Below are positions 23,522 through 44,691 of a stretch of DNA of 45,900 nt, piece by piece. Both the position numbers and the translations under genes were made by a program. How positions within the stretch are numbered: the stretch's first letter is position 1; each line of letters begins with the position of its first letter. Below the pieces are notes generated by a model. That model saw nothing but the letters and a program-made list of their open reading frames with translations. It had not been told where the DNA came from and did not search any database. Origin of the DNA: a virus; UHGV virus genome UHGV-1347344. The stretch is one strand, 5' to 3'.

Positions 23522-24307
23522 CTAGTCCCCGAACTCGGGGATTACCGCTCTGTACGTGCATTGGCACCCCGGAAGCTCACCGCAAAGCACTTTGCGCTTC
23601 ACGTCAGAGTCGTAAAGACCTTCCGTGATGACGAACTTTTTCCCATTCATGAGCTGGTGGGTATGGCGGCTCGTTTTCTTCCCCGGCACATGTACCCAGA
23701 TGCCTTCGGTGATGCCGAGTTCCTTATCCTGCACCCGCTTAAGGGCCTCGGTCACCTTGTTGGACTGGTCGCGGGCAATGAATTCTGCCCGGCGCCGGGT
23801 GATCTCGTACCGCTTGTGCAGTTCGTCGGCGAGGAACTCCACGTCCCGGCCCGTGCTGGCGGAACGCATTACAAGCCCGGTAACTTCGGTAATGTACTGC
23901 TGCGGAATGGACTTGATGATACTGTAATTTTCCAGTAGCAACGCCCGTTCCACATCATTCATGGCCCGGGTGCTGGCCTTCATCTTTACCGTGAAGCCCG
24001 CATCCTTGAGGGCCTGCCGCATCCCGGCTTCCGTGCGCCGCCTCGTACTGCCCACGAACTCCCGTGCAAAACTCTCCGCGCTTTCCCTCCACCGCTTCGT
24101 CCAGTACCGGAACAGGCTCTTGAGGCGGTCTTGCAGGTCACTCGCCGGGGACGCATCCTGTGCTATGCGGGTTTCCTGCTTCCTGTACTCGGCGCGCAGC
24201 CACCACACGACGGAACGCTGCATCTCGTCGAGAAGCGACACCAGCCGCTTCCGGTATTTCGCCCGGATGCCCGCGTTGGGCTTGATGGCGCGGATGACCT
24301 TAGCCAT
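23522..24307 (-). CDS. head morphogenesis protein (Mu F / SPP1 gp7 family)
   Basis: Downstream of portal. Contains the Mu-F pattern WWLRAEYRKQ...; start ambiguous between 24307 and 24331. Confidence 0.7.
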   Translation of the reverse strand: MAKVIRAIKPNAGIRAKYRKRLVSLLDEMQRSVVWWLRAEYRKQETRIAQDASPASDLQDRLKSLFRYWTKRWRESAESFAREFVGSTRRRTEAGMRQALKDAGFTVKMKASTRAMNDVERALLLENYSIIKSIPQQYITEVTGLVMRSASTGRDVEFLADELHKRYEITRRRAEFIARDQSNKVTEALKRVQDKELGITEGIWVHVPGKKTSRHTHQLMNGKKFVITEGLYDSDVKRKVLCGELPGCQCTYRAVIPEFGD

Positions 24308-25847: not shown

Positions 25848-25880
25848 GGGGGCATCATGTTATGAGCGAAGAAGAAAACA

Positions 25881-25898
25881 CACCGTGAACAAGGTTCG
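25881..25898 (-). promoter_or_regulatory. late-promoter element copy 3, upstream of portal/head operon
   Basis: CGAACCTTGTTCACGGTG; CATGAT 21 nt downstream, ending 7 nt before the portal ATG. Confidence 0.55.
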
Positions 25899-25934
25899 GG
25901 TGCATGGATGTCGGACACCTTTCATATTGTATCA

Positions 25935-25980
25935 ATATAGATTAATCTATATATACATGGATACCTTTAGGGAGGTATCC
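25935..25980 (+). promoter_or_regulatory. 18-bp perfect palindrome ATATAGATTAATCTATAT plus RBS-sequestering hairpin upstream of endonuclease I gene
   Basis: Palindrome at 25935..25952. 8-bp stem ggatacct/aggtatcc (25959..25980) encloses the GGAGG RBS; ATG at 25983. Confidence 0.5.
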
Positions 25981-25982
25981 GC

Positions 25983-26729
25983 ATGTACAAAAGCATCATG
26001 GTGTTTTTGCTGGCCGCGCTAGTTATGACGTCCGAGGCGCAGGCCGCGGGCAACGAATGGAACGATTCGTTCAGCAAGGCCAAAAAAACGTTGGAGCGAC
26101 AAATCTATCATGACCACCGGATCACGCTCTACTGCGGGGCGGCGTTCGACGAGAAGAAGAACGTCACCCTCCCGGAGGGTTTTACTGCCGCGAAGCACGA
26201 GAAGCGGGCCGGGAAGGTGGAATGGGAACACGTGGTCCCCGCCGAGAACTTCGGGCAGGCGTTCGCGGAGTGGCGCGAGGGCGACGCGCAGTGCGTGGAC
26301 AACAGGGGAAAGGCGTTCAAAGGCCGCAAGTGTGCCGAGAAGGTCAATAAAGACTATCGGTACATGCAGGCGGACATGTACAACCTGTATCCGGCCATCG
26401 GCGCGGTGAATGCCCTACGCCAGAACTACAACTTTCAGATGTTGCCGGGCGAGGAGCCGGACTTCGGAAGCTGCGGGATGAAGATCGCCGACCGCAGGGC
26501 CGAGCCGCCTATCAGAGCGAGGGGACAGATTGCCCGGACCTACAAGTATATGGCCGACGCCTATGCCCCGCGCTACCGCATGAGCCGCCAGCAGACGCAG
26601 CTCATGGACGCATGGGACAAGATGTATCCGGTTGATGCGTGGGAATGCACGCGGGCCAGACGTATTGAAAGACTACAAGGTAACGAGAACCCTTTTGTGA
26701 AGGAAAGATGTCAAGAAGCAGGACTCTAA
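25983..26729 (+). CDS. endA: secreted endonuclease I (EndA/Dns/Vvn family periplasmic-extracellular DNase)
   Basis: Signal peptide MYKSIMVFLLAALVMTSEAQA followed by the Endonuclease_1 pattern (…YHDHRITLYCGAAF…WEHVVPAENFG…DMYNLYPAIGAVNALR…). Opposite strand to the flanking packaging genes. Confidence 0.75.
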   Translation: MYKSIMVFLLAALVMTSEAQAAGNEWNDSFSKAKKTLERQIYHDHRITLYCGAAFDEKKNVTLPEGFTAAKHEKRAGKVEWEHVVPAENFGQAFAEWREGDAQCVDNRGKAFKGRKCAEKVNKDYRYMQADMYNLYPAIGAVNALRQNYNFQMLPGEEPDFGSCGMKIADRRAEPPIRARGQIARTYKYMADAYAPRYRMSRQQTQLMDAWDKMYPVDAWECTRARRIERLQGNENPFVKERCQEAGL

Positions 26730-26743
26730 CTATTTACATTCAT

Positions 26744-28213
26744 TTATATTCTCCTTCCCATACGTGGATGATTGAGGATGGCGGGGTTGATGCACATAGG
26801 CCGCTTGGTATCGAAATCACGCAGCGCCTGTGTTGTGGCGTCCACTTGGTCGTCGTGGGGCGCACCGGGGAACTGTGTCAGTTCCGCGACGTACTCCCGC
26901 GCCCACGGGCAATGCTCAGGGTGCGGGAGCAGGACGTTCCCGGCCTCGAAGAACGTGGTCACGGCATGGGCCCGGGCCGTCTTGCTGCCGTCCGGCTCCA
27001 CGGGGATGATACCAGGCACAGCATGTTTCAGCGCGTCGATAACCGCCGGGCCGTTGGCCTTATCCTCCACCAGCTTACGGGCTGCGCCGGGCCATTTAGC
27101 GGCGAGCGCCCGGAACGCGGCGACCGTATCCGTAAATCCCATGCGCCGCCGGACCTGATCGAGGAGGTAGCGGTCGGCCCCCTTGCGGCCCCACACCTGC
27201 CCCACAACAAAGTCGGTATCGTCGCCGTCCTTGAACGTCATATCCCACGAGATAAGGAGCTGGTCGAACTGCTCTGGCAGATCTTTGGGGAGCCAGAAGC
27301 GCAACCACTCGGATTTGAAAATGGCGCCGCCGTCTGGCGTAGGCCGCTGCTGGTACAGGGCCTCCCAGTCGCGTGTGCCGAGGGCTTTCTTAATGGCAAG
27401 GAGCTGGCTCAGCGGGTAACGTTCCGGGTGCAGGGCTTCCCCGGCCTTACGATGTGGCTCGTCCGCCGTGGCGATGGCAGGGAAGTCCACCACACGCCAG
27501 TGGTCGCCCTCCCCCCGTGCGGCGGCCTCAAGCAGCCGCCCGGAAAGGTCGGCCATGTGCCAGCGCGTATTGATAATGAGAACCCCCCCGCCGGGCGCGA
27601 GGCGCGTGTACAGCGTGGACGTGTACCAGTCCCAGACGTTCTGGCGGATGGTCGGGGAATCGGCGGATGCCCGGTCTTTGAATGGGTCATCGACGATGAC
27701 GATATGCCCGCCCATGCCCGTGATGCCGCCGCCCACGCCAGCGGAACGGTAGCATCCAGCGTGCCCCACTACCTCGAATATATCTGAGTTGCGGAGGTAG
27801 GAACCGTTCCCCACGGTGCGGATGTTCTTGCCGTACAGCGCCGTGCCGGGAAAGAGTTCCCGGTATTCCGGACTGTCGATGACGCGCTGAACGTCGCGGT
27901 TCATGCGCGAGGACAGGTCGGCGGTGTAGCTCGTGGAAATGACGGATAGATCGGGATAGCGGCCCAAGGCGTAAGCCGGGAAGCGGCGCGAGGCGAGCTC
28001 GCTTTTCCCGTGGCGCGGGGGCATGGTCAGCATGAGGCGCGGGGAACGCCCGGCTACGACATCTGCAAGGAAAGCGTCAAGCTCGGAACAGATTTCCTCA
28101 TGCACCCATCCCATGCAGTAGCCGGGCATGGTGTAGCGCACGAAGGCCGCGAGACAGCTCCGGGCCAGCGCACAACGAATTTCAGCAAGCACCTCACCCG
28201 TCATTCCTCTCAT
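26744..28213 (-). CDS. terminase large subunit
   Basis: 489 aa. ATPase region TMPPRHGKSELASRRFPAYAL (Walker A-like) then a nuclease domain. Preceded by terS. Confidence 0.85.
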   Translation of the reverse strand: MRGMTGEVLAEIRCALARSCLAAFVRYTMPGYCMGWVHEEICSELDAFLADVVAGRSPRLMLTMPPRHGKSELASRRFPAYALGRYPDLSVISTSYTADLSSRMNRDVQRVIDSPEYRELFPGTALYGKNIRTVGNGSYLRNSDIFEVVGHAGCYRSAGVGGGITGMGGHIVIVDDPFKDRASADSPTIRQNVWDWYTSTLYTRLAPGGGVLIINTRWHMADLSGRLLEAAARGEGDHWRVVDFPAIATADEPHRKAGEALHPERYPLSQLLAIKKALGTRDWEALYQQRPTPDGGAIFKSEWLRFWLPKDLPEQFDQLLISWDMTFKDGDDTDFVVGQVWGRKGADRYLLDQVRRRMGFTDTVAAFRALAAKWPGAARKLVEDKANGPAVIDALKHAVPGIIPVEPDGSKTARAHAVTTFFEAGNVLLPHPEHCPWAREYVAELTQFPGAPHDDQVDATTQALRDFDTKRPMCINPAILNHPRMGRRI

Positions 28214-28598
28214 TCTCTTTAAAAGCCTCCCGCGTCAGCTTAAGCAATTCATCGGAGGAAAGATGGGAAAGATCAAGTGCTGGTGCAGGCGACATCGTTC
28301 TATCAGAACTGGAAAGATCAATTTTTTGAATCTCTCGCCATCCCATACGAGTCTTTGCCCAGAAAATAAGAGCGGTTGTGTCACCCGACATAGCTTTGTC
28401 GAAGAGCCGCTTTCCAACTTTCACATTAGCGTTGGTTCTTCCTGTGATAAGCTCCTGCTTATAGAGCTTCACCATCGTATCAACAGACATACCAATCTTT
28501 GCTGCGATTTCATCTTGCGGTACTCCGTATTGAGCCATTGCCTCAACAAGCGCCGCCTTTGTTCCAGATCTTTTTATCGCAGGTCTACCACCGCTCAT
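28194..28598 (-). CDS. terminase small subunit (HTH)
   Basis: 134 aa overlapping terL by 20 nt. HTH-like AAKIGMSVDTMVKLYKQ. Confidence 0.6.
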   Translation of the reverse strand: MSGGRPAIKRSGTKAALVEAMAQYGVPQDEIAAKIGMSVDTMVKLYKQELITGRTNANVKVGKRLFDKAMSGDTTALIFWAKTRMGWREIQKIDLSSSDRTMSPAPALDLSHLSSDELLKLTREAFKENERNDG

Positions 28599-29542
28599 AG
28601 AACGCCTCCGAGCAGGTTGATGTAGTACGGAATCGTTAGTTCAAGCCCCTCATCCAAGCTCGTTGTCGGCTTGAATCCCAAAAGAGCGGACGCTTTTCCA
28701 ATATCAGGAACGCGCCGCGTGGGGTCGTCGTCAGGAATGGGCCGGAATACGATTTTTGATGACGACCTGACTTTTTCGATTATAGTCTTGGCAAGCTCCA
28801 AGATCGTGATTTCTTCGGGGTTTCCAATATTTACCGGACCCGTGATATGACTATCCGACTCCATCAGCCGGACAATCCCTGATATCGTATCGCGCACAAA
28901 ACAAAACGAGCGTGTCTGAGAACCATCCCCGTATACGGTTATATCCTCACCCCGCAAGGCTTGGCAGATGAAGTTAGGAATAACCCGACCATCGTTTATC
29001 GACATCATGGGGCCGTAGGTGTTGAACAGACGCACAACCTTAACCTTGATCCCCTCTTCCCGGTAAAAGTCGAAGAAGAGACTTTCTGCGCAGCGTTTCC
29101 CCTCATCGTAGCAGGCTCGGATGCCGATGGGGTTGACGTTGCCTCTATCAGTCTCTCGCTGAGGCGAAACTAGTGGCTCGCCATATACTTCTGATGTGGA
29201 TGCCTGCAAAACCGTCGCACCATGTACCTTGGCAAGCTCCAGTATATTCAATGCCCCAAGTACGCAGGTCTTTGTAGTCTGAATTGCATTTTTGCCCTGA
29301 TAGTTTAAAGGGCTTGCTGGACATGCGAGATTGTAAATTTCGTCTATATGCTCAGAAGCCTCAAAAGGAGAACAAATATCATGAAGAAAGAACTGAAAGT
29401 TTTTGAGCCGATTGGGGATATTATTAATATTTCCGGTTGAAAGATCGTCTATGCAGATAACCTTGTGTCCTTTTTTAAGCAATTCCCTGCAAAGATGTGC
29501 TCCTAAAAATCCGGCACCACCTGTTACGAGACTTGTTTTCAT
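28595..29542 (-). CDS. uxs: UDP-glucuronate decarboxylase (UDP-xylose synthase family SDR)
   Basis: MKTSLVTGGAGFLGAHLC…NYQGKNAIQTTKTCVLGALNILELAKVHGATVLQASTSEVYG…NPIGIRACYDEGKRCAESLFFDF…VRLFNTYGP closely parallels UXS/ArnA-C (GxxGxxG, YxxxK). Low GC. Confidence 0.85.
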   Translation of the reverse strand: MKTSLVTGGAGFLGAHLCRELLKKGHKVICIDDLSTGNINNIPNRLKNFQFFLHDICSPFEASEHIDEIYNLACPASPLNYQGKNAIQTTKTCVLGALNILELAKVHGATVLQASTSEVYGEPLVSPQRETDRGNVNPIGIRACYDEGKRCAESLFFDFYREEGIKVKVVRLFNTYGPMMSINDGRVIPNFICQALRGEDITVYGDGSQTRSFCFVRDTISGIVRLMESDSHITGPVNIGNPEEITILELAKTIIEKVRSSSKIVFRPIPDDDPTRRVPDIGKASALLGFKPTTSLDEGLELTIPYYINLLGGVL

Positions 29543-30408
29543 GAATCCGCCTTTTGGTATCGAGGGGAAAGGATTTTGGGCGTGCAGTGATTCCAAGAGA
29601 TTTTATGGTGGTATCGCATATACGTATCTTTGAGCGTCGATATTTTCACAGCAGATGGGCACATCATGACAGTATAAAAACTTTTCATATATGTACCATT
29701 TTCAAGATACATATCGGTCAGCCCACCAGCTTGAGATTGTGTCTCAGCTTGATTGATGCACGTATTCCCGAACGAGAAAAACAGCTTGCCCCGATGCCCC
29801 AGAGTGACATACGTGTTAACGTCATCATTCATACGTCCAACGAACTTGAAAGGGCGTAATGTCTTGCAAAAAAACGCGTTCATGGCTTTTCGTTTCACAG
29901 CCAATTTGGGGGAATCAATAGCCCCACCAATGAAATCGCCATTCTGCATAAAGCAGACGCTTAAAGATGGAGTTCTTTCTAAAAAATCTAGATAGGCATC
30001 GAAGACATCATCGAGGCATTGTGGGTATACATATTTCAAGACGCCATCTTTTGCATATCTGTGCTGGAACGAGTCATAATCATCGTCAAGTTCTAAGAAA
30101 AAATCGAGTCCCAAGCCCTCGGCTATTTTGTGACACATATTTCTAGCAAAAAGGACCGTATTTTTCTTCTGGATATTATCACCACGATCAGTAAATCGTG
30201 CTGCATCTTCCTTACAAAAGCGGATCACTTCTTTACCATACCGACGAATATATTCATCACCTGTCGTATCTTCATCATCAATAATGAGGTAAATGGGGCC
30301 TGTATATCCATGCTTTCGGAGTGAACGATATGTTTGCTGATTCTGAGGGCGTCCATACGTAAGTATAAAGCAAGCAAATTTTTCATGCCTCATCGTTCTT
30401 ATCCTCAC
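29539..30408 (-). CDS. putative glycosyltransferase (DxD-type)
   Basis: 289 aa with FILTYGRP and LELDDDYD motifs. 4-bp overlap with the uxs-like gene; AT-rich. Confidence 0.45.
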   Translation of the reverse strand: MRIRTMRHEKFACFILTYGRPQNQQTYRSLRKHGYTGPIYLIIDDEDTTGDEYIRRYGKEVIRFCKEDAARFTDRGDNIQKKNTVLFARNMCHKIAEGLGLDFFLELDDDYDSFQHRYAKDGVLKYVYPQCLDDVFDAYLDFLERTPSLSVCFMQNGDFIGGAIDSPKLAVKRKAMNAFFCKTLRPFKFVGRMNDDVNTYVTLGHRGKLFFSFGNTCINQAETQSQAGGLTDMYLENGTYMKSFYTVMMCPSAVKISTLKDTYMRYHHKISWNHCTPKILSPRYQKADS

Positions 30409-30685
30409 GGATTAAGGCATCTCGAAGTTCATCTATCTGGGAAGAGAGCTCAACAAACCCGTTTTCAATCGCATTATCAATGTCGATGATAACAAGGGCT
30501 GACTGCTCCATAAGTCGCTGCATTTCAGGGGATGCGTTTGCGTAGTACTCTGCGATGTTCTCGTAGTTGAAAACCGTATGCCGATGAGCAGCCGCGAGAA
30601 GAAAGGCTTTTTCTTTCGGAGAAACGGTTGAGTCATGAATGGCCTTTGGCGAGTTCATTATCCTTTGTCTGGTCGTACAGTTCAT
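30383..30685 (-). CDS. hypothetical protein
   Basis: 100 aa, first gene of the low-GC sugar moron; start uncertain. Confidence 0.35.
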   Translation of the reverse strand: MNCTTRQRIMNSPKAIHDSTVSPKEKAFLLAAAHRHTVFNYENIAEYYANASPEMQRLMEQSALVIIDIDNAIENGFVELSSQIDELRDALIREDKNDEA

Positions 30686-31154
30686 CTACGCAAACAGATC
30701 TACCCGTAGGCTCATATATGGGGGTTGTGGCTTTCGCTGTGTACTTATCTTCTACGGGAACATCTTCTTGGGGCTCGAAAAGCTCAGCCTCAAAACCGAT
30801 AAGATCAGTATCAAAATCGGCTAGTTTGAGCTCTTCAAGCTCAAGGGCCAAAAGTTCGTTGTCCCATTCAGCCCAGTTTGCGGACTGATTGGCAAGCAGT
30901 CGAAAAGCCTTGACTTGAACATCACTCAACTCGTCGGCAAGAGCCACAGGGACATCTTTCAAGCCGAGTTTCTGAGCTGCTTTCAGGCGCAGATGTCCAT
31001 CAACGACGGTGCCATCGGACTTAGCGACAATGGGGATACGGAATCCGAACTCCCGGATGGCCGCACACATACGATCAACCTGCGCATCATTTTTGCGCGG
31101 GTTCCTTGCGTAAGGTATCAATCGCTCAATAGGCCATTGCTCGACATTCAGCAT
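30633..31154 (-). CDS. ParB-like nuclease domain protein
   Basis: 173 aa, IERLIPYARNPRKND…VVDGHLRLKAAQKLG (ParB N-terminal / sulfiredoxin-like fold). Confidence 0.65.
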   Translation of the reverse strand: MLNVEQWPIERLIPYARNPRKNDAQVDRMCAAIREFGFRIPIVAKSDGTVVDGHLRLKAAQKLGLKDVPVALADELSDVQVKAFRLLANQSANWAEWDNELLALELEELKLADFDTDLIGFEAELFEPQEDVPVEDKYTAKATTPIYEPTGRSVCVDELYDQTKDNELAKGHS

Positions 31155-34152: not shown

Positions 34153-35002
34153 TTCTGTATACCTCGTCGAGTTTCAAAACCTGTTCCGCAAAATCGCCGC
34201 GTTCCGCCGCTTCCACCTGCCTCGCCGTCATAGGGGCGGCTCGCTGCTGGATAGGGCTCGACCTGCTGGCGTTGTTCTGCGCCCGGTCAAGCCATGAGTT
34301 CAGGAACCGCCGTACCCCAGTTTTTGTTTTCCGCTTCCGGGGATTGCTCAGGCACCACGCCCTGACCTGTGCAAGCTCACCAGCCACGTCTACCCCCGGA
34401 TAAGCTGCAGCGTACTCGCTGGCCAAAGATGCGGGGACCGGAAACTCGGAACCGTCAGCAAGCGGGATCATGGCTACAGACTGTTCCTGCTCACCTTCCG
34501 GTTCCGGCGCCGAGGATGCGCCAGCATCGCTCTGCGCAAGATCTGTCTTTCTCTCTTCTTTCTTACTTTCTTTCTTTATATCTTTCTTGTTTGTGGCCCT
34601 CTGCTGGCCCTCTGCTGGCCCTCTGCTGGCCTCTTGCTGGACCTCCTGCTGGCCTTTCTGTTGGCCTTCCGCTGGCCTTTCATCTTGGTATCTATGCCAA
34701 TTTAAAAAAGAAACTACTGTACATCTGTTGGTCGATCTGCTGGACACAATTTCGAGTTTTTTGAGCAGTTCAAAAGCTGTTCTTACCTGCTTTTCACTCA
34801 ACCCCAGATCAGAGGCTGCCTTAGCTCGTCCAAAGATGACTTCCCCCGGCTCAAGATCAAAGACCATGCCCGCAACGATTTGACGATGGTGACGGTATGT
34901 AGTCTTGAGCAACAGGTAGCCAAAGAGCTGCCACGCGGGGCCGTTTTGGAGCAGCCCGCTATCTAGGCATTTCCGCCAGAGCTTGACATATCCTTGTTCC
35001 AT
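34031..35002 (-). CDS. replication initiator (lambda O / DnaD-like winged-helix N-terminal domain) containing the origin iterons
   Basis: N-terminus YVKLWRKCLDSGLLQNGPAWQLFGYLLLKT…. The central low-complexity part is encoded by tandem 11-12 bp repeats. RBS GGAGACAA. Confidence 0.55.
   Translation of the reverse strand: MEQGYVKLWRKCLDSGLLQNGPAWQLFGYLLLKTTYRHHRQIVAGMVFDLEPGEVIFGRAKAASDLGLSEKQVRTAFELLKKLEIVSSRSTNRCTVVSFLNWHRYQDERPAEGQQKGQQEVQQEASRGPAEGQQRATNKKDIKKESKKEERKTDLAQSDAGASSAPEPEGEQEQSVAMIPLADGSEFPVPASLASEYAAAYPGVDVAGELAQVRAWCLSNPRKRKTKTGVRRFLNSWLDRAQNNASRSSPIQQRAAPMTARQVEAAERGDFAEQVLKLDEVYRNGEFAAFGSGTQQGVCALSAAEARAGGIRVAGQDLGRRVG
34595..34681. repeat. iteron array: about 7-8 tandem copies of GGCCCTCTGCT-like 11-12-mer, flanked by AT-rich stretches; candidate ori
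   Basis: Three perfect ggccctctgct copies then ggcctcttgct, ggacctcctgct, ggcctttctgtt, ggccttccgct. AT-rich 34550..34593 and 34690..34775. Confidence 0.6.
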
Positions 35003-35263
35003 AGGTATATTGTCTCCATTGTTTGGTGTTTTTGTTTGGCCTCCTGTTCCAGCAGGGGGCCTTTTCTTTTGCCTATGCCTTAGAACCTTTAAGTTCTACT
35101 TCAAACATATCCGGCCTCTTCTCGCAGTACAGGCGGCAGAAGTTCACGTCTTTGACGAACCCGTTTCGGGACGTCCACGCCGGGACTCCGTACTCTTTCG
35201 ACCAGTCCGCAAAACACAGGACGCGCCGCCCATCACGGTGAAGCCGACCCAAGCGGCACGGGC

Positions 35264-35662
35264 CTACACCCATGCCTGCCCCATAACCTGGTATTCCGGG
35301 ATACCACCCGTTTCAGATTCGCTGCGGAGCTTTTCCCAACAAGCTGAACACCTGTAATTGTTTGTGGGCTTCCCGCAGTCATGGCACTTACGCTTGAAAA
35401 GTGTTGACTGATTGCTCTGTGGATGAGCTTCAAGCCATTCTTCGCGGCTCACCCCGGCTCTGAAAGCATACCCACAAACTTTGTCGCAAAAAGCTGCATT
35501 CCCTTTCGCTGGAAATTCTTTTCCGCAGCACTTGCACTTTTGAGGCCCTCGCGTCTGTGCGGCCTTATCCTTGCACTCTTTTGAGCAGTACTTTGCGGTT
35601 TCGGCAAAGTACCGTTTCACTTCAAACATCCGACCGCACTGTTGGCAAATCAGGATCGGCAT
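35264..35662 (-). CDS. Cys-rich zinc-ribbon protein
   Basis: 132 aa with repeated CxxC pairs (CQQC, CSKEC, CKCC, CDKVC, CHDC, CSAC). Confidence 0.4.
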   Translation of the reverse strand: MPILICQQCGRMFEVKRYFAETAKYCSKECKDKAAQTRGPQKCKCCGKEFPAKGNAAFCDKVCGYAFRAGVSREEWLEAHPQSNQSTLFKRKCHDCGKPTNNYRCSACWEKLRSESETGGIPEYQVMGQAWV

Positions 35663-35811
35663 TTTACTGCCTCGCTTGGTTGTAATCTCGCCTATACCGA
35701 GTGTTCGTCTGGTCTATCTCGTCCTTCCGTTCTTCCGCAGCCTTGGAGACGATGGACGGATGCGCTTTTTCCCGCATAAGCATATTCATCTTTCCGCCAC
35801 ACACGGCGTCA

Positions 35812-36045
35812 TCAGGCTAGTCCATGATTCACCTCTTCGGGTTCGCTGGGAGTATTGGGAGCGGCTATCCGAGACATAGCATCCCGCAGCGCATCAGCTT
35901 TTGCAGAAACCATATCTTTCCTTTCACGAGATAACACGCGAGTTACGGTTACCGGGGTAACACCTGCTTCAAGAGCCAAACGACGAGCAGAAATTTTGTG
36001 CTCCATCAAAAAAAATCGGAGTTCTGAAACGATTCGTGCTTCCAT
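35812..36045 (-). CDS. Cro/C-like XRE-family HTH regulator; first gene of the leftward early/replication operon
   Basis: 77 aa, LMEHKISARRLALEAGVTPVTVTRVLS (HTH). Confidence 0.55.
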   Translation of the reverse strand: MEARIVSELRFFLMEHKISARRLALEAGVTPVTVTRVLSRERKDMVSAKADALRDAMSRIAAPNTPSEPEEVNHGLA

Positions 36046-36064
36046 GCGACAGATCGTACCTTAT

Positions 36065-36085
36065 GGTATTGGTAAAGTAAATACC
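36065..36085. promoter_or_regulatory. candidate operator: inverted repeat GGTATT-N9-AATACC in the divergent control region
   Basis: Seen directly in the sequence between the Cro-like gene and the rightward TTTACT-N16-TATTAT promoter-like element (36104..36131). Confidence 0.35.
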
Positions 36086-36613
36086 GATTTGTAAACTTTT
36101 TGCTTTACTTTGTGTTTCCATTTGGTATTATGACTTCACAACGAACGGGGAATGCGAACACGCCAGGCACCTAGCCGGAAAGTAGCCAGAATGCCCCGTG
36201 AAAAGGAAGCCGGTTTGGGCGGCATGAAGGCCGTAGCGGATACGGTGGGCGGAGCAAGAGGCCGCCCGGAAAGCTCGAAAGAGGCCCGTGAGACTGGTGA
36301 TGTGAAGACAGGCCGCGTAGGGACGGCGGGACGGAAAAACGGCTGAAAAGAAGGCCGAAGCGCAAAGCGCACCGAAGCGACGGGGGCCGAGCCGACCAAC
36401 AGGGCCCACGGTTACGACACAAAGATCGGGCCGTGAAACGATGAAATACGAATTTCTACATCCGGGCGGTCAGTTGACTTTCTGACAATTCACCGCCCCG
36501 CATGAGAGGCGCAGCGACAATGCGCGTTGCGCCGAACCATGCGTTGAGATGTGCCGCATGGGAGCGCGCCCCGGCGGGGATTGGCCCCGTCGGGTGCTTG
36601 CCTTGAATCATCG

Positions 36614-36640
36614 AAGCCCGGAACTACGCCGGGCTTTTTC
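36614..36640 (+). terminator. rho-independent terminator/attenuator 48 nt upstream of the first rightward early gene
   Basis: 8-bp stem aagcccgg/ccgggctt with a 7-nt loop, then TTTTT. Confidence 0.55.
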
Positions 36641-36687
36641 ATTGGTTCTGGGACCCCGGAACGAACTTTAACCAAGAGGATACAGCC

Positions 36688-36954
36688 ATGCGTAACCCCT
36701 ACGAATATGAACCGGAAGATGAGCCCCACGTATGCGCAACCTGCGCCCGCTACTTCGAGAGCGACCAGCTGTGCAATATCTCTTCGGACATGGTGAAGGC
36801 CATCAAGGAACGGTTCGGCATCATGCTTGCCGATGCCGAGGTTGCCATCGACCCGAAGAAGATCACCCACTGCGAGGGATGGGTAAGCGCAGAACTTCAC
36901 GACAGGTACGCGCTGTATCGGGACAAGTTGGAAAAGAGGAGGAACGCGGCATGA
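36688..36954 (+). CDS. hypothetical protein (first rightward early gene)
   Basis: 88 aa with RBS AAGAGGA. Confidence 0.45.
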   Translation: MRNPYEYEPEDEPHVCATCARYFESDQLCNISSDMVKAIKERFGIMLADAEVAIDPKKITHCEGWVSAELHDRYALYRDKLEKRRNAA

Positions 36955-37157
36955 ACGGCACCATTTTCTGCCCGCACTGCAAGCTCAAGTACGACAAGGC
37001 CGTGAGGCTCAGGAGGCACCGCGACTTCTGGATCTGCTCGTCCTGCGCGGAATACTACACCGCCGAGACGCTGGTCACGGCGTGCGAGAACGCCGCACGG
37101 TCGTTTCTGGCAAAGGCCAACTACCTCAAAATCATGGCACGGAGGGCAGCGGCATGA
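36951..37157 (+). CDS. zinc-ribbon protein
   Basis: ATGA coupling. Product MNGTIFCPHCKLKYDKAVRLRRHRDFWICSSCAEYY… (CxxC…CxxC). Confidence 0.45.
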   Translation: MNGTIFCPHCKLKYDKAVRLRRHRDFWICSSCAEYYTAETLVTACENAARSFLAKANYLKIMARRAAA

Positions 37158-37312
37158 TTTCCAACGTCTACATGAAGCACGCCAAGGTATCTTTGGAACG
37201 GCCTAAAAAGGTTGACCGGGCTAGAGTTGCTGCGGTCATCATCTTTATGGCTGTCATGCTCGGTATCTGCATTCTTCCACAGATCTTGTACGGGATGGAG
37301 GCCATGCGATGA
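37154..37312 (+). CDS. small membrane protein (52 aa)
   Basis: ATGA overlaps on both sides; TM segment AAVIIFMAVMLGICILPQIL. Below the track cutoff. Confidence 0.35.
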   Translation: MISNVYMKHAKVSLERPKKVDRARVAAVIIFMAVMLGICILPQILYGMEAMR

Positions 37313-38139
37313 AACCGGAAATGCGGCTCAATGAACCGCCAGAAGTCTACCACGCCACCCGCGCCATAAGCAAAAGCGGTATGGACAAGCTCAGGCAGGC
37401 CCCCGCCAAATTCAAAGCTTGGATGGACGGCGTTACAGAAGAGGAAACGGAAGCATTCCTTTTCGGTTCTGTTTTCCACTGCCTTGCACTCGAACCCGGA
37501 GAATTCGGCAAACGGTACGCCGTAAAGCAATTCAACGGCTCAACCAAGGCGGGCAAGGAAGAAACCGCGACCGCCAAGGCCGCAGGGCTGGAACTGGTGC
37601 CAGCCAAAATACACAATGCAGCTTCGGCAATGGCGGAATCCGTTCTGATTCATCCTTTGATCGGCAAGTTGATGACTGCAAAGGATAAGCGGACGGAAGT
37701 CTCTATATACTGGAGCGAAACCGTGGACGGGCTCGAAATTCCATGCAAGGCCCGGCTGGACATGCTTGCCACCGTGCCGGGGTTCGGGCTCGTCGCCGTT
37801 GACCTTAAAAGCACGGACGACGCCAGCCCGGAAGGGTTGGCCCGCTCTGTACTCAAGTGGGGATATCACAGACAGGCAGTATGGTACCGCCGCGCACTCC
37901 GGGCCGTGGGCATGGACTCCAGCGTGTTCGTGCTCGTCGCCGTCGAGAAGACCGCCCCCCACCTTGTCACCGCCGCCAACGTCAGCGAGGACGCGCAGCA
38001 AGTCGGACTTGAAGAAATCAAGGACGCACTCAGCACATACGCATCCTGCACCAAGTCCGGCCTCTGGCCCGGATACGTTTCTGAAATCATCGATCTTGAC
38101 CTGCCCGAATGGGCTTACAAGAGGAGATTCGCCGCATGA
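37309..38139 (+). CDS. PD-(D/E)XK exonuclease (RecE/YqaJ-like), partner of RecT
   Basis: 276 aa, …GFGLVAVDLKST… (D-x-K). Coupled (ATGA) to the downstream recT. Confidence 0.6.
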   Translation: MKPEMRLNEPPEVYHATRAISKSGMDKLRQAPAKFKAWMDGVTEEETEAFLFGSVFHCLALEPGEFGKRYAVKQFNGSTKAGKEETATAKAAGLELVPAKIHNAASAMAESVLIHPLIGKLMTAKDKRTEVSIYWSETVDGLEIPCKARLDMLATVPGFGLVAVDLKSTDDASPEGLARSVLKWGYHRQAVWYRRALRAVGMDSSVFVLVAVEKTAPHLVTAANVSEDAQQVGLEEIKDALSTYASCTKSGLWPGYVSEIIDLDLPEWAYKRRFAA

Positions 38140-39041
38140 GTCAACTTGTACAGCAGAACAATATCACAGACCTTATCAAATCGCAGATGCCCGCCATTGC
38201 TTTGGTGATGAATGGCACATCGGAAAGGGAGCGGAAAATCAAGGCAGAACGTTTTGCACGTATCTGTCTGACCGCTGTCCGTAAAAATCCAAAACTCATG
38301 AAGTGCTCGCAAGAAAGCTTTGCAGCGGCTCTTATGAACTGTGCACAGCTCAACCTTGAGCCCAATACGCCGCAGGAATTGGCATATCTTATTCCCTATA
38401 AGGATGAATGCCAATTTCAAATTGGATACAAAGGGTTTCTACAGCTCGTATATCGTTCTGGCATTGTCTCATCATTCAATGCCGATGTTGTATACAGGGC
38501 TGAGGTTGAAAACGGTATGTTCGAATACCGTAAAGGGATCACACCAACCATTACCCACAAAGTCGATCTACTGCATCCAGAAGCCCGCGAGGGAGAACTT
38601 ATTGCGGCCTATGCAGCATGTACGCTCAAGGGCGGCGGTGAGGGGATGCTTCGACTTGTTGATAAAAAGGACATCGAGCGCGCACAAAAGACTAGCGCCA
38701 GTCTCGCCGCGAACAAAAAGTATGGAAAGGACAGCCCGTGGATTTCTTCTCCAGAAGCCATGTGGATGAAGACAGCCATCAAACGTCTTGCCGCTTGGCT
38801 TCCTCAGACGGAAATGCTGGCAATGGCCGTTGACCTCGACGACAAGTCAGAACGCGGGGAATCCCAACTTGTTCTTCCTGAATTGACGCCGACAGATGGC
38901 CTAAACGCGGCACTCACGGGAAGCACGCCGGAAGCGCAACCCGTCAATATGATCACCTGTCCGAAAACTGAAAAGCAGGTGAACGACTTGAAGTGTTCCG
39001 AATGTGACCAGCACGCCCAATGCCCGGCGTGGGCAGAATAA
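38136..39041 (+). CDS. recT: RecT-family single-strand annealing recombinase
   Basis: 301 aa with RecT family-wide similarity (…CAQLNLEPNTPQELAYLIPYKDECQFQIGYKGFLQLVYRSG…). Confidence 0.8.
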   Translation: MSQLVQQNNITDLIKSQMPAIALVMNGTSERERKIKAERFARICLTAVRKNPKLMKCSQESFAAALMNCAQLNLEPNTPQELAYLIPYKDECQFQIGYKGFLQLVYRSGIVSSFNADVVYRAEVENGMFEYRKGITPTITHKVDLLHPEAREGELIAAYAACTLKGGGEGMLRLVDKKDIERAQKTSASLAANKKYGKDSPWISSPEAMWMKTAIKRLAAWLPQTEMLAMAVDLDDKSERGESQLVLPELTPTDGLNAALTGSTPEAQPVNMITCPKTEKQVNDLKCSECDQHAQCPAWAE

Positions 39042-39096
39042 CCACCCCGGCCCGGCTCACCACCGGGCCTTTCTTTTACCATAAGGAGAAAGAGCC

Positions 39097-39501
39097 ATGA
39101 GCAGTCCTCTCGACATGCGAACCATGAACAACGGCGGCGTGGTCGAAGCCGTCAACATCGCGCTTGCCAAGGTCGCGGACAACATCGCGGACGTGAACAC
39201 GCCGCCGGACAAGCCCCGTACCGTCACCCTCAAAATCACATTCAAGCCCGACGAGAGCCGGACGCTGATCGCATCCAAGGCCGTTGTGACGACCAACCTC
39301 CAGCCGCAGGAACCGCAGACCATCCCGGTCGTGCTCGACAAGCTCGACGGCGCGCCCATGCTGTTCGAGTCATTCACCGACAACCGCCCCGACCAGTACC
39401 GCTTTGACGGCACCATGCCCTCTGAACTCAGGGGGAACGGCAGCGTGACCGTGAACGTAACCCCGTTCAAGAAGGCTGAGGAACACCCCATCAACCAGTA
39501 A
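39097..39501 (+). CDS. hypothetical protein
   Basis: 134 aa with RBS AAGGAGAAAG. Confidence 0.45.
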   Translation: MSSPLDMRTMNNGGVVEAVNIALAKVADNIADVNTPPDKPRTVTLKITFKPDESRTLIASKAVVTTNLQPQEPQTIPVVLDKLDGAPMLFESFTDNRPDQYRFDGTMPSELRGNGSVTVNVTPFKKAEEHPINQ

Positions 39502-39518
39502 CAAAAGGAAAAAATCAC

Positions 39519-39791
39519 ATGGAAATCAACCGTATTGAAGCTGACAGGCACCTCATCGGCGTAGGCCGGGAACTCGAATCCCTTGACGGCAAGGCCAAGG
39601 CCACACTTCCCATTCATGCCACGGAAGACGGGATGCGGTTCTACAAGCCTATGCTTGAAGGAGAATGGATTCCTCTCCTTGACGCCGCTCAGGGCACGCT
39701 CAACGTGGGCACCTTGCAGGCCGTGGTGGACTACATCAACCAGAACCCCGACGGGGATGGACCTCAGCAAGATCCTTGTCCACGTTTGTGA
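39519..39791 (+). CDS. hypothetical protein, possibly the N-terminal part of a frameshifted gene
   Basis: 90-aa ORF overlapping the next ORF in another frame across a GGGG run near 39757. Confidence 0.35.
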   Translation: MEINRIEADRHLIGVGRELESLDGKAKATLPIHATEDGMRFYKPMLEGEWIPLLDAAQGTLNVGTLQAVVDYINQNPDGDGPQQDPCPRL

Positions 39792-40284
39792 TGTGACTAC
39801 CGTGAAAGTCATGTCCATCCCCTTTGGGGGCTGGAAGCAGCGCACCACGTACATGCGGGCCGACGCCGTCGTCCCTGCCCACCGTTTCGGAAGCTGGACC
39901 TCGCCCGACGAGTTTGTCCCCTATCTCCAGTCCTGCTTTGTCCCCTCGGACGATCTCGACGCGCTCATCAAGATCAGCGGCAATCTCGTGGACACCTCGG
40001 AAGTCCGCGTACAGGACGACGGCGTGTCGCAGGAGGTTTCCATCCGCCAAGGCGCGGCACGCAAGGCCGAAGTGCCCGTACCGTCCCCTGCGGTTATCTT
40101 CCCGTTCAGCACCTTTGCGGAAGTCGCGCAGCCCGCGCACAAGGTCGTGTTCCGGCTCCAGTCCAGCCCGCTGGCCTGCAAACTCATCGAATGCGACGGC
40201 GGCGCGTGGAAGCTGGAAGCCATCGCCAATATCCGCACATGGCTGATTGAAAACCTGCCCGAAGGCGTGAAGGTCATCGCGTAG
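39757..40284 (+). CDS. hypothetical protein, possibly the C-terminal part of a frameshifted gene
   Basis: 175 aa from ATG at 39757; the upstream part of the 233-aa track ORF looks non-coding. Confidence 0.4.
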   Translation: MDLSKILVHVCDVTTVKVMSIPFGGWKQRTTYMRADAVVPAHRFGSWTSPDEFVPYLQSCFVPSDDLDALIKISGNLVDTSEVRVQDDGVSQEVSIRQGAARKAEVPVPSPAVIFPFSTFAEVAQPAHKVVFRLQSSPLACKLIECDGGAWKLEAIANIRTWLIENLPEGVKVIA

Positions 40285-43436: not shown

Positions 43437-43649
43437 ATGGAAACGACAATCTCGGAAATCCGCTCAATCGTACAGCGGCGTCGGGAGTTGGAGATTGAAG
43501 ACCAACGTCTCTACCAACGGTTTCTCGAACTGCTCGAACTCAACCAAGGGACTAGAAAATCTTCCCGCGATAGGCTATCCCCAGAATCAGGGAAGGCGCT
43601 TTTTGCTGGCTTGAAGAGAGGTTCTCATGAGCGTAGCAAAGCGCGGTGA
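43437..43649 (+). CDS. hypothetical protein (possibly excisionase-position gene)
   Basis: 70 aa directly upstream of int, overlapping it. RBS GGGAGGATAAG. Confidence 0.4.
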   Translation: METTISEIRSIVQRRRELEIEDQRLYQRFLELLELNQGTRKSSRDRLSPESGKALFAGLKRGSHERSKAR

Positions 43650-44691
43650 CGGCAGATTTGTCGTCAAGTTCAAAGATGAAGAAGGGCGCTGGAAACAGCG
43701 CTCTTTCCGTACTGATGAAGAGGCCCGGCAGTTCGATGCGGATTGCCAATATGATAAGGTGGAAAACACGCGCCTGACGCTGTTGGAGGCGGTGCTGGTG
43801 TACTTAAAGAACACTGAGTACGCCGAAAAAACCATAGCAACGTACGAGTTTTTGGTCTGTGGCCATGACAGGCAAAACGGCTATCACCGGGAAGGTCCAG
43901 CGGAGTTTATTGCCGACCGTTTTGTTGACACATTGACACGTCGTGACCTCGAAAATGTGCGCGAGAGGTGCAGGAATGATGGCCTGACTATGACAAGCAT
44001 CAACTCCTACGTTTCAAAACTCAAGGCCGCAATCAATTGGTGCGTCGAACAGGATTTGCTCCACGAGAATCCTTGGGGGAAATATCGGCAACTCCCAGGC
44101 GCAAAAAACAAGCCACGGACGGGAACGCTGGAAGACTTCCACAAACTCTTTCCTGTGCTCCCGCCGTGGCTTCAATGGGCAGCCCAAACCGCCATTGCCC
44201 TATGTCTGCGTCCCGGCATATCCGAACTTTTCCGTCTCGAATGGTCGGCATTCGACTGGAAGGCTAGAACTGTGTGCGTTTACATGCCGAAAGTTTGTAC
44301 TACAAAACTTGTATTCCCGCCAGAGGCATATCTTGCCGAAGCGTGGCTACGGTTCAAGTCAGACATGGCAGCTGGAAAAACCCTCGTTTGCCGTGGGAGA
44401 AAAGGCACGGCAGTGACCTCCTCCATGTACCACAAGTCATGGGATAGGGCATGTAAAAAAATCGGCGTACTTATGCCTATGTACGCGTTACGGCATATTG
44501 CTGCTTCCGAAATGCTGGCAAATGGGGTGGACATCGCAGCAGTGGCCGCGCAACTTGGGCACAAGAACATCACCACAACAGGGGCATTCTACACTCATGC
44601 GCTGGCATCATCCCAACGGCGTGCAGCTACATGCCTCCCTGATTGCACCAACTTGGTGCGGAATGGTGCAGAAAAACAATTACATAATTAA
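43627..44691 (+). CDS. int: tyrosine integrase/recombinase
   Basis: 354 aa with a C-terminal catalytic region (…ALRHIAASEMLANGVDIAAVAAQLGHKNITTTGAFYTHAL, R…H-x-x-R…Y). Last gene of the rightward early operon. Confidence 0.85.
   Translation: MSVAKRGDGRFVVKFKDEEGRWKQRSFRTDEEARQFDADCQYDKVENTRLTLLEAVLVYLKNTEYAEKTIATYEFLVCGHDRQNGYHREGPAEFIADRFVDTLTRRDLENVRERCRNDGLTMTSINSYVSKLKAAINWCVEQDLLHENPWGKYRQLPGAKNKPRTGTLEDFHKLFPVLPPWLQWAAQTAIALCLRPGISELFRLEWSAFDWKARTVCVYMPKVCTTKLVFPPEAYLAEAWLRFKSDMAAGKTLVCRGRKGTAVTSSMYHKSWDRACKKIGVLMPMYALRHIAASEMLANGVDIAAVAAQLGHKNITTTGAFYTHALASSQRRAATCLPDCTNLVRNGAEKQLHN

Follow-up and report, generated by a model that had tools for sequence, protein, structure and literature searches.

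A structured leader RNA fixed to the early promoter of Bilophila phages, and the apparent loss of the neighbouring CI repressor gene

We describe a conserved, structured and previously undescribed leader RNA which, from the comparison of related phage loci, is fixed to an early promoter surrounded by operator palindromes of at least 10 types. The window, a stretch of 45,900 nt, is a complete temperate-type phage genome in which an integrase is present and a CI repressor absent. Its host is Bilophila wadsworthia, judging by an exact leader match in the genome of B. wadsworthia ATCC 49260, where a prophage on NZ_JNJP01000012 shares both leader and core. Positions 36104-36640 are, by their layout, the start of the rightward early operon and the counterpart of the lambda PL operon. 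We interpret them, with a probability of roughly 55%, as the untranslated promoter-proximal part of this operon, carrying a leader that would let transcription pass terminators. The original prediction had seen here a non-coding region with a promoter-like site, a purine-rich transcript and a terminator, all of which stand, and had suggested RNA-based lysogenic control, which does not.

Organization of the early region

The leftward operon opens with a cro-like gene, followed by genes for a Zn-ribbon protein, a DnaD-like loader and RusA. In the rightward operon an 88-aa gene comes first, then genes for a second Zn-ribbon protein, a RecE-like exonuclease, RecT and the integrase (Table 1). This order mirrors that of lambda: cro leading away from PR and its operators, CI (in relatives), then operators and PL leading into the leader, the recombination genes and the integrase. 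An identical copy of the cro-like protein occurs on 17 contigs, where its gene adjoins a divergent CI-like gene. Blastn of positions 35000-38000 against 50,697 phage records returned zero matches, and literature searches on Bilophila phages gave nothing on their regulation.

Table 1. Features of the early region and the rightward operon, with positions in the window.
Feature	Position	Strand	Description	Basis
cro-like HTH gene	35812..36045	minus	77 aa	ORF list; weak HTH matches in Pfam and PHROGs
Putative PR promoter of cro	36053..36081	minus	-35 TTTACT (complement of 36076-36081), 17-nt spacer, -10 TACGAT (complement of 36053-36058)	read from sequence; consensus scan did not detect it
Operator-like palindrome TACC-TTAT-GGTA	36057..36068		inside PR spacer	inverted-repeat search and operator copies in L016
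Putative deletion scar	36081..36096		junction AAATACCGAT/TTGTAAAC at 36088/36089	blastn split of the window
Early PL-type promoter	36104..36131	plus	TTTACT-N16-TATTAT	promoter scan, repeats, comparison of relatives
Operator-like TTCCATTTGGTA	36116-36127		between the early-promoter hexamers	
Leader domain D1	36135..36211	plus	77 nt, long irregular hairpin	MFE folds, covariance model R1
Leader domain D2	36209..36302	plus	variable interior, three hairpins	fold -38.3 kcal/mol
Cargo module 1	36303..36438	plus	three small hairpins in a long irregular stem, then hairpin CACGG...CCGUG	
Cargo module 2	36439..36612	plus	four hairpin elements	fold z = -2.55
Intrinsic terminator	36613..36640	plus	9-bp stem GAAGCCCGG/CCGGGCUUU (36613-36637), 7-nt loop, UUUUU (five-U run 36635-36639)	fold
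First rightward early gene	36688..36954	plus	88 aa	ORF list, Pfam, PHROGs
RecE-like exonuclease gene	37309-38139			
RecT gene	38109-39041			
Integrase gene	43627-44691			
Further terminator-like hairpins	39049, 40293, 40556, 42699, 44864	plus	at least five, up to and just past the integrase gene	

As the original prediction had held, no convincing ORF lies between the cro-like gene and the first rightward gene (36046-36687). The overlapping GC-rich ORFs that it had dismissed as noise appear to be just that, the 64-aa ORF at 36152-36346 having zero family matches in Pfam and PHROGs. A protein gene hidden by an unusual start, a frameshift or recoding, for instance one for a repressor, is the least likely of all the explanations that we considered. 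An external pipeline did call the 64-aa ORF in two relatives (L011 and L012; 51 aa if counted from the ATG at 36191), but that ATG is inside a helix strand of the leader and is missing from other leader types. Every plus-strand frame of 36135-36640 holds 4–7 stops, the longest open stretch in the three frames being 69 codons. Furthermore, the indels between leader types are not multiples of 3 in length, indels of 1, 2, 4 and 21 nt separate close relatives, and tblastn with CI proteins was negative in all frames.

The putative transcript is indeed purine-rich, as predicted: positions 36135-36640 are 59.5% purine and 13% T, compared to 50% purine and 22% T in the whole genome. The repeats reported within it are 11–14 nt long, occur in two copies each and all lie within hairpins. 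ARAGORN found no tRNA or tmRNA in the window.

An early promoter flanked by immunity-specific palindromes

The promoter proposed at 36104-36131 was the sole sigma-70-like site found by a scan of 35500-37200. Its position is conserved across 56 distinct upstream sequences of relatives, with diverging hexamer sequences. In about two thirds of these contexts an automatic scan found a -10-like hexamer whose end lies 3 nt ahead of the conserved TTCAC with which the leader starts, and in the remaining third or so CATACT- or CACACT-type hexamers were read by eye at the same position. The -35 of the scanned relatives most often matched TTGACA at 5 of 6 positions. An operator-flanked, sigma-70-type promoter is hence predicted to be positioned to drive a transcript beginning at the conserved UUCAC. 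Contigs that end at the leader start (e.g., L093) were considered as a mark of the transcript 5' end and rejected, because the boundary between conserved and hypervariable immunity sequence is a place where assemblies break.

Palindromes of at least 10 different types flank the early -35 among the 56 upstream contexts. With such immunity-specific palindromes around it, the early promoter should be off in a lysogen. On the other strand, the cro ATG lies 7 nt past the -10 of the putative PR, so that the cro mRNA would be nearly leaderless.

Structure and conservation of the leader

The leader (36135-36302, 168 nt) has two domains and was found once per locus in about 125 related loci; its 73 distinct versions come from 126 loci. 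D1 comprises the helices UUC.C/G.GAA, CGGGG/CCCCG and GGC/GCC, an apical hairpin (H1) and the conserved purine-rich loops GGGGAAKGCGAAC, GAAAG and GGAGGAAGCC, a fold that agrees across the MFE folds of nine leader types. The covariance model R1 gave exactly one match per locus (85 bits in the window), with 51 matches at E ≤ 0.03 in a first set, whose 52nd match (E = 0.44) was a chance one, and 71 matches in a second set. The proportion of paired cells was 86.8%, against 22–46% in slid controls. H1 has changed on both sides, and a hairpin is formed there by four unrelated sequences, including a G-C / G-U / A-U series.

D2 is closed by the helix CCGGUU (36210-36215) / GACUGG (36292-36297), after which comes a conserved GGUGAUG. 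Among the 73 distinct leaders this helix reads CCCCA/UGGGG, CCAGCC/GGCUGG or CC[AG]GUU/GACUGG, with compensatory changes at 3–4 positions. The helices of the leader are preserved either by compensatory changes or by wholesale hairpin replacement. D1 is universal and D2 variable, the latter being dispensable in one relative (L121), where a Shine-Dalgarno sequence and an ATG stand directly after D1.

The covariation is confined to a few helices in a set of closely related leaders where most base pairs never vary, and the number of pairs changed on both sides showed no excess over shuffles (5 vs 4.5). Thermodynamic z-scores for the leader alone are weak (-0.84 for D1 and -1.83 for D2). RNAalifold, run over the whole leader on a MAFFT alignment in which non-homologous hairpins are misaligned, did not recover the variable helices and returned an alternative closure, UCAC/GUGA, which competes with UUC/GAA.

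The Rfam search proposed along with the original prediction gave zero matches at gathering score in the window (Rfam 15). At E ≤ 10, positions 35900-36800 had six chance-level matches to unrelated families, and 11 related loci had matches to tRNA alone. Neither the covariance model nor a motif search found a second copy of the leader of the putR or nutR kind, including after cro. Matches to the leader pattern in Streptomyces, Nonomuraea, a Verrucomicrobia MAG and soil or sediment contigs were discarded as chance; the rest of the leader is absent from them.

Variable cargo and serial terminators behind the leader

The leader is followed in the window by about 310 nt of non-coding cargo in two modules. 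Module 1 was found at 52 loci in 28 distinct versions, which vary in loops or by compensatory changes (GCGC-AAA-GCGC vs GGAUG-AGA-CAUCC; CGGC...GCCG vs GCACG...CGUGC). Module 2 contains the hairpins GGGCGGU...ACCGCCC, GCAUG-[GGCGCA...UGCGCC]-CAUGC, CCAUGCG...CGCAUGG and CCCCG.CGGGG. In relatives, the hairpin at 36505-36545 is inverted (L026), swapped for GGGAG...CUCCC (L023) or deleted between CCGCAUG repeats (L029 and L034). Window-type ncRNA makes up 39 of the 87 distinct cargo variants and arrays of 1–5 tRNA or tRNA-like genes another 20, the rest being other RNA or small ORFs. Cargo of relatives includes genes for tRNA-Ser, tRNA-Gln, tRNA-Met, tRNA-Leu and tRNA-Phe, as well as a tRNA-like gene whose anticodon loop is 6 nt long. 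Elsewhere in the phage genome the RNA has complementary matches of at most 14 nt, no more than chance would give. We also dropped a match of 7 nt that links CGCAUGG (36555-36561) to the start region of the 88-aa gene, as phages with another first gene do not conserve it.

Could this stretch be no more than a recombination scar without function, or coding sequence in decay, such as what the deletion left of the CII/CP76-like gene and its neighbours? We consider this very unlikely. The region is mosaic, with breakpoints at short conserved strings, and 36191-36331 coincides with the 5' portion of a 166-aa ORF that gene calling labelled 'Phage_CP76' in two relatives (L001 and L016). However, that 5' portion is the leader, and the CP76-like domain starts from an internal Met, which has a separate GGAG ribosome-binding site; tblastn with the CI and CP76 proteins of relatives was negative in the window. 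Positions 36134-36687 are 89–99% identical in phages of other immunity types, their variation is concentrated in loops or preserves hairpins, including the inverted hairpin and the wholesale swaps, and the leader is invariably positioned at the promoter.

The predicted intrinsic terminator folds well (-20.1 kcal/mol, z = -3.6) and ends 48 nt before the ATG at 36688. It was missed by a simple scan and found by a separate one, which also detected it in many relatives. Of the 87 distinct relatives, 51 have at least one terminator of the window's family within 1.6 kb, often two or three in series. Terminator-like sites numbered 19, against 10.0 ± 3.5 expected. Promoter-like sites in the operon were at chance (5 vs 4.6 expected), and none was seen in the conserved 48 nt that separate the terminator from the first gene.

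A discrete unit of about 500 nt from promoter to terminator is also what a stand-alone ncRNA gene, or a source of processed stable RNAs acting in trans (in anti-defence, tRNA-related functions or host takeover), would look like. The leader would then serve 5' stabilisation or processing and the terminator would define the 3' end, with downstream genes expressed via leakage or unrecognised promoters. This explanation is possible but doubtful. It is consistent with the genuine stable RNAs (the five tRNA kinds and the tRNA-like gene) that occupy the cargo position of relatives, with a 5' end that is base-paired (UUC/GAA) as in known 5' stabilisers and with a leader that is single-copy per genome; in L121, D1 can be a plain 5' UTR. 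Against it stand the lack of visible promoters in the conserved 48 nt and, beyond chance, in the operon, the lack of extended complementarity to the rest of the phage genome, and the serial terminators of a co-directional operon, which are more easily explained by antitermination. A function in trans and a leader that lets transcription pass terminators are not mutually exclusive.

Apparent loss of the CI gene

The genome had been reported to encode no repressor with an S24 peptidase domain, which we confirmed: tblastn over the whole window with three CI types from relatives gave a best E of 0.37, and 36046-36687 has no ORF with HTH and S24-like domains divergent from cro. Relatives offer a simpler explanation than an exotic immunity system. 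In 23 other loci with the same cro and operators, the distance between the two flanks is about 0.9 kb (in a single case about 2 kb), and the interval holds a 246–260-aa CI-like gene wherever gene calls were made. The cro flank of the closest relatives is 96–99% identical to that of the window. Blastn against L001-L010, L016 and L017 splits the window at 36081-36088, where these relatives have the CI-like gene. The missing 0.9 kb or so carries, in relatives, the PRM region, a 246-aa CI-like gene, a terminator and operator copies. Among 157 loci the junction at 36088/36089 is spanned solely by the window's own contig, and the CI-less junction rests on a single assembly. The region looks empty because the gene that relatives have between cro and the early promoter is missing here. 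We conclude that the missing repressor is explained, as far as sequence comparison can tell, by a deletion of about 0.9 kb and not by RNA-based immunity.

The suggestion that lysogenic control is RNA-based for want of CI was not borne out. We give almost no credence to an RNA that replaces CI through premature termination or a translational block, like P4 CI or P1/P7 c4. It would fit a genome encoding no protein repressor and an RNA that lies in the leader of its potential target operon and stops at a terminator, but relatives that share cro and operators have the CI-like gene exactly at the window's junction. Moreover, a 99% identical RNA occurs alongside an S24-type CI in L011 and a 248-aa CI-like gene in L013. 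Operators of at least 10 immunity types flank the promoter, which should be repressed in lysogens. The RNA matches no Rfam family, C4 included, loop complementarity to the start region of the first gene, assessed by eye, never exceeds 7 nt, and tRNAs or ORFs replace the cargo in other phages with the same leader.

Discussion

The original prediction left a choice between an sRNA of about 500 nt and an attenuated leader; of these, a leader needing antitermination fits best. RNA polymerase starting from the de-repressed early promoter would cross the long untranslated cargo and the operon's terminators. The leader would work in cis, on either the transcription complex or the emerging transcript, like nutL and putL at the same position, and polymerase that reads through would reach the recombination genes and the integrase. 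The transcription start, RNA stability and terminator read-through are all predictions from sequence, and a role as 5' stabiliser or in processing would fit the same anatomy. More speculatively, and with the odds against it, D1 (with D2 where present) may represent a new class of RNA in Desulfovibrionaceae phages, one that acts in cis by processive antitermination or against Rho, is unrelated in sequence to nut and put, and licenses cargo transcription and terminator read-through. The cargo of this proposed class consists of tRNA arrays, a tRNA-like decoy and structured ncRNAs.

Lambda nutL is an N-dependent processive antitermination site just downstream of PL. Similarly, the leader comes right after an early promoter that is under repressor control and points in the same direction as cI, and the terminator-punctuated operon behind it contains recombination genes and an integrase. 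The same untranslated stretch also has an rrn-boxA-like UUCUUUGACAA in some relatives. In contrast to lambda, the window lacks a boxA/boxB pair and a second site after cro, and no N-like protein could be recognised in it. Positions 36100-36700 hold no boxA-like UUCUUUGACAA within 2 mismatches, and the first genes (88, 68 and 52 aa) did not, on inspection, resemble the arginine-rich N. A degenerate CUUUCUGACAAU in the loop at 36478-36489 was too weak to claim as boxA. Lambda nut consists of a 15-nt hairpin and a linear boxA, whereas the leader is 168 nt long and highly structured.

HK022 putL and putR are factor-independent antitermination RNAs, two copies of about 70 nt each with two stem-loops. 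The leader resembles them as a folded RNA that comes straight from the early promoter, with terminators downstream and no conserved partner protein beside it, since the first gene differs among relatives. It differs in being present in one copy and in pairing a 77-nt irregular hairpin with a variable second domain. Model R1, run with filters off against HK022 positions 24000-31000, had a best score of 6.4 bits (E = 3.7), the put sites being unannotated in that record.

Other systems share parts of this anatomy. P4 CI RNA and P1/P7 c4 also lie in a phage operon leader and are followed by termination, but they are made in the lysogen and pair with their own operon, whereas the window's promoter is operator-controlled, its relatives have a protein CI, the Rfam C4 family gives no match and no target complementarity beyond short matches was seen. 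The PR'-6S RNA-tR' unit of lambda likewise combines a promoter, a short non-coding RNA, an intrinsic terminator and promoterless genes; however, it stands in front of late genes and depends on promoter-bound Q, whereas the window's unit precedes early genes and is under repressor control. On the other arm of the window, only 63 nt separate the gene at the Q position from the lysis gene, so no comparable leader is present there. With the boxA leaders of rRNA and tRNA operons the element shares the tRNA arrays that follow it in about a quarter of the distinct variants, the boxA-like motif of some relatives and long untranslated transcripts that are G-rich and U-poor; it differs from them in being phage-borne, located at an operator-controlled promoter and without boxA.

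A phage without CI should be unable to maintain lysogeny on its own, and the window genome is likely a clear-plaque or virulent derivative of a temperate Bilophila phage. Its apparent lack of a repressor needs no exotic immunity, as comparison with near-identical relatives shows that CI has simply been lost. Another variant that lacks CI (L042) is independent of this one and suggests that derivatives of this kind turn up repeatedly in the gut. Should antitermination or RNA protection prove to be its function, the leader would be a third, unrelated solution beside nut and put, and would explain how phage tRNA arrays and other untranslated RNAs are expressed early in infection, here in phages of B. 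wadsworthia, a clinically relevant gut sulfidogen.

Loss of the CI repressor gene

The gap between the cro-like gene and the first rightward gene (36046–36687) is non-coding, as originally predicted: from 36135 to 36640 every plus-strand frame is closed by 4–7 stops, and the 64-aa ORF at 36152–36346 matches no family in Pfam or PHROGs. The predicted promoter and intrinsic terminator were both confirmed in the sequence (see table). Purines make up 59.5% and U 13% of the transcribed stretch; the genome-wide values are 50% and 22%. The suggested Rfam search returned zero matches at gathering score in the window and noise only at E ≤ 10 in 35900–36800, and tRNA genes were not found in the window.

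Features of the gap and the flanking operons (window coordinates)
Feature	Position	Strand or direction	Remarks
cro-like HTH gene	35812–36045	leftward	left border of the gap
Promoter TTTACT-N16-TATTAT	36104–36131	plus	sole sigma-70-like site in 35500–37200
Leader domain D1	36135–36211	plus	long irregular hairpin; helices UUC.C/G.GAA, CG/CG, CGGGG/CCCCG, GGC/GCY; apical hairpin H1
Leader domain D2	36209–36302	plus	variable interior, closing helix
Terminator, hairpin and run of five U	36613–36637 (hairpin)	plus	−20.1 kcal/mol, z = −3.6; ends 48 nt 5' of ATG
First rightward gene	36688–36954	rightward	right border of the gap
Further terminator-like hairpins, rightward operon	39049, 40293, 40556, 42699, 44864	coding strand	

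The leftward operon reads cro, Zn-ribbon protein, DnaD-like loader and RusA; the rightward operon comprises small proteins, a RecE-like exonuclease, RecT and, far downstream, a tyrosine integrase (43627–44691). This order is the mirror image of the lambda layout, which makes the gap the exact expected place of cI, then OL/PL-nutL. Consistent with the original prediction, tblastn with three CI types found no CI homologue anywhere in the window. Seventeen contigs encode an identical Cro protein, followed in those shown by a divergent 246–260-aa HTH protein whose C-terminal half, read by eye, is LexA/CI-like. Using blastn, window 36046–36088 aligned with the cro side of relatives carrying the CI-like gene, and 36081–36331 with their DNA ~0.9 kb further on, 3' of the CI stop. 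Where the related locus L016 reads ...GTAAATACCGAT / ACCATATG..., CI, ...GATACCAT / TTGTAAAC..., the window has GTAAATACCGATTTGTAAAC, and the break point lies inside operator-like repeats of the TACC-N4-GGTA type. Among 157 loci the junction (36088/36089) is spanned by the window's own contig only; the two pieces lie ~0.9 kb apart in the 23 other loci with this cro flank (~2 kb in L046). CI was lost independently in L042, with ~70 bp of palindromic filler instead. We conclude that CI is truly absent and that this reflects a deletion in a genome otherwise of temperate type, not another immunity system. The proposed RNA-based lysogenic control is dropped because CI was simply lost.

Several further observations were made. 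After the deletion, the two divergent −35 hexamers (36076–36081 and 36104–36109) are only 22 bp apart and form an inverted repeat AAAGTAAA/TTTACTTT. The −10 of a putative cro promoter, TTTACT-N17-TACGAT (36046–36081, minus strand), lies just 7 nt before the cro ATG, which would leave the cro mRNA with little or no leader. L042 (~2280–2400, minus strand), which shares the window's immunity type and likewise lacks CI, retains all cro-side operators, and its filler holds the inverted repeat CCAACGCGCC...GGCGCGTTGG in place of the CI ORF. In L011, a relative with an S24 CI, a 293-aa SDH-protease/NfeD-like gene and a 66-aa gene (4213–5294) separate CI from the leader promoter; they occupy the position of lambda rexAB and may be lysogen-expressed accessory genes. 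Mid rightward operon, a 265-aa minus-strand ORF (39057–39854) overlaps plus-strand ORFs 39097–39501 and 39583–40284, the latter two called by an external pipeline; none matches Pfam or PHROG. ENA contig ERZ807456 NODE_2 (179x coverage) equals the window, at 45,955 against 45,900 bp; the 55-bp excess, the size of the k-mer overlap that assemblers typically leave, points to a complete genome in circular form.

A leader shared across immunity types

The stretch 36134–36687 is 99% identical in L011 and 89.5% identical in L013, a phage with a 248-aa CI-like gene; 36296–36687 recurs at 94–99% identity in four further contexts. Pattern scans across collections of viruses, genomes and metagenomes yielded ~125 loci from human-gut assemblies, all sharing the start, TTCACRACGNNCGGGGAAGGCGA, of what we term the leader (the first 168 nt of the predicted transcript, 36135–36302). 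An exact match to the leader motif in the genome of B. wadsworthia ATCC 49260 identifies this species as the host; the remaining genome matches were attributed to chance.

Of 56 distinct upstream sequences, most have a −10-like hexamer ending 3 nt 5' of the leader start. On either side of the TTGACN-like −35 lie palindromes of at least ten kinds, which we read as immunity-specific operators. Hexamers with such varied flanking palindromes have the sequence signature of a repressor-controlled early promoter. From this context the RNA is expected to be transcribed early in the lytic cycle, which speaks against a role in immunity.

Leader structure

Nine leader types, each folded independently (MFE), gave the same two-domain structure. 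In D1 the purine-rich loops GGGGAAGGCGAAC, GAAAG and GGAGGAAGCC do not vary. H1 occurs as four unrelated sequences, every one hairpin-forming, and within one type a single pair runs G-C, G-U, A-U. R1, a covariance model of D1, matched exactly once per locus. In its alignment 86.8% of cells are paired versus 22–46% with slid partners, and 18 cells are changed on both sides versus 8.0 ± 2.1 in shuffles, counts biased towards structure because the alignment was fitted to the model; pairs with changes on both sides did not exceed shuffles (5 versus 4.5). Across 73 distinct leaders the D2 closing helix is CCCCA/UGGGG, CCAGCC/GGCUGG or CC[AG]GUU/GACUGG, forms that are compensatory at three or four positions. 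D2 is missing from L121, which makes D1 the universal part. RNAalifold proposed an alternative closure of the whole leader (UCAC/GUGA), which would compete with the UUC/GAA helix. Taken by itself, the window leader has weak thermodynamic z-scores (−0.84 for D1 and −1.83 for D2); the case for the predicted structure rests on comparative evidence.

Exchangeable cargo

The sequence 3' of the leader, or cargo, is exchangeable, with 87 distinct variants. The window-type core is present in 39 of these, and 20 carry arrays of 1–5 tRNA or tRNA-like genes. Among the genes in these arrays are Ser(UGA) and Gln(UUG), two instances with Met, Leu and Phe, and a class-II tRNA-like gene whose anticodon loop has 6 nt. 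In the remaining variants the cargo is non-coding sequence of other kinds or small ORFs, one of them a CII/CP76-like gene (L001, L016), whose '166-aa' call wrongly counted the leader as an N-terminal extension. Changes in window-type cargo fall in loops or keep hairpins, as in the swaps of GCGC-AAA-GCGC for GGAUG-AGA-CAUCC, CGGC...GCCG for GCACG...CGUGC and GGCGCA...UGCGCC for GGGAG...CUCCC; the GGCGCA...UGCGCC hairpin is deleted in L029 and L034. The equivalent of hairpin GAGGCGCAGCGACAAUGCGCGUUGCGCCGAAC (window 36505–36545) is an exact reverse complement in L026, a hairpin-preserving in-place inversion.

The class-II tRNA-like gene (L046 8509–8597; also L048, L051, L053, L071, L072, L078, L095, L119, L142) has a long variable arm, an encoded CCA end and the 'anticodon' loop UGAAAA, and lies 15–20 nt 3' of the leader in several relatives. 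ARAGORN could assign no anticodon, and the gene scores too low for the Rfam tRNA family; it may be a decoy, or a tRNA mimic that does no decoding. In L090 and L140, 199–802 nt past the leader start, as well as in L043, L048, L052, L053 and others, the same operator-controlled early promoter and leader are shared by arrays with as many as five tRNA or tRNA-like genes (Met, Leu, Phe, Ser(UGA), Gln(UUG)). Long-stemmed RNA-like modules, e.g. GTCGTTGTTTCGAGGGATGGA...TCCATCCACTCGAAACAACGAC, lie between tRNAs in L043 and L053.

Terminators and the role of the leader

No promoter was seen in the conserved 48 nt between terminator and first ORF. Of 87 relatives, 51 have terminators of the window family no more than 1.6 kb from the leader, often two or three in series, and the window's rightward operon has 19 terminator-like sites versus 10.0 ± 3.5 expected, with promoter-like sites at chance. 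The operon thus appears to depend on transcription passing terminators.

The leader is fixed at the transcript start, the position of nutL and putL, which favours a cis-acting role: by analogy, it would allow early transcription to continue through terminators and untranslated cargo. It differs from nut and put in their defining features: each phage has a single copy, cro is not followed by a second one, and the leader model finds nothing similar in the early region of HK022. The window also lacks the boxA of nut, having only a degenerate CUUUCUGACAAU in a hairpin loop (36478–36489). In some relatives an rrn-boxA-like UUCUUUGACAA follows a hairpin in the untranslated stretch; the form UUCUUUGACAA(U/G)CAGCG is seen in cargo of L042 (1784–1794), L046 (8603–8613), L047 (2188–2198), L124 and L142, preceded in L042 and L047 by hairpin GCGGGAUGCCCGC. 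The same anatomy fits the main rival, stable RNA(s) acting in trans with the leader as 5' stabiliser or processing module, which is compatible with a cis role. The original interpretation is partly supported: the attenuated leader survives, lysogenic control by RNA does not.

We conclude that the leader is an undescribed RNA motif, limited to Bilophila phages in the collections searched, whose candidate function, favoured here, would be to sustain early transcription in cis.
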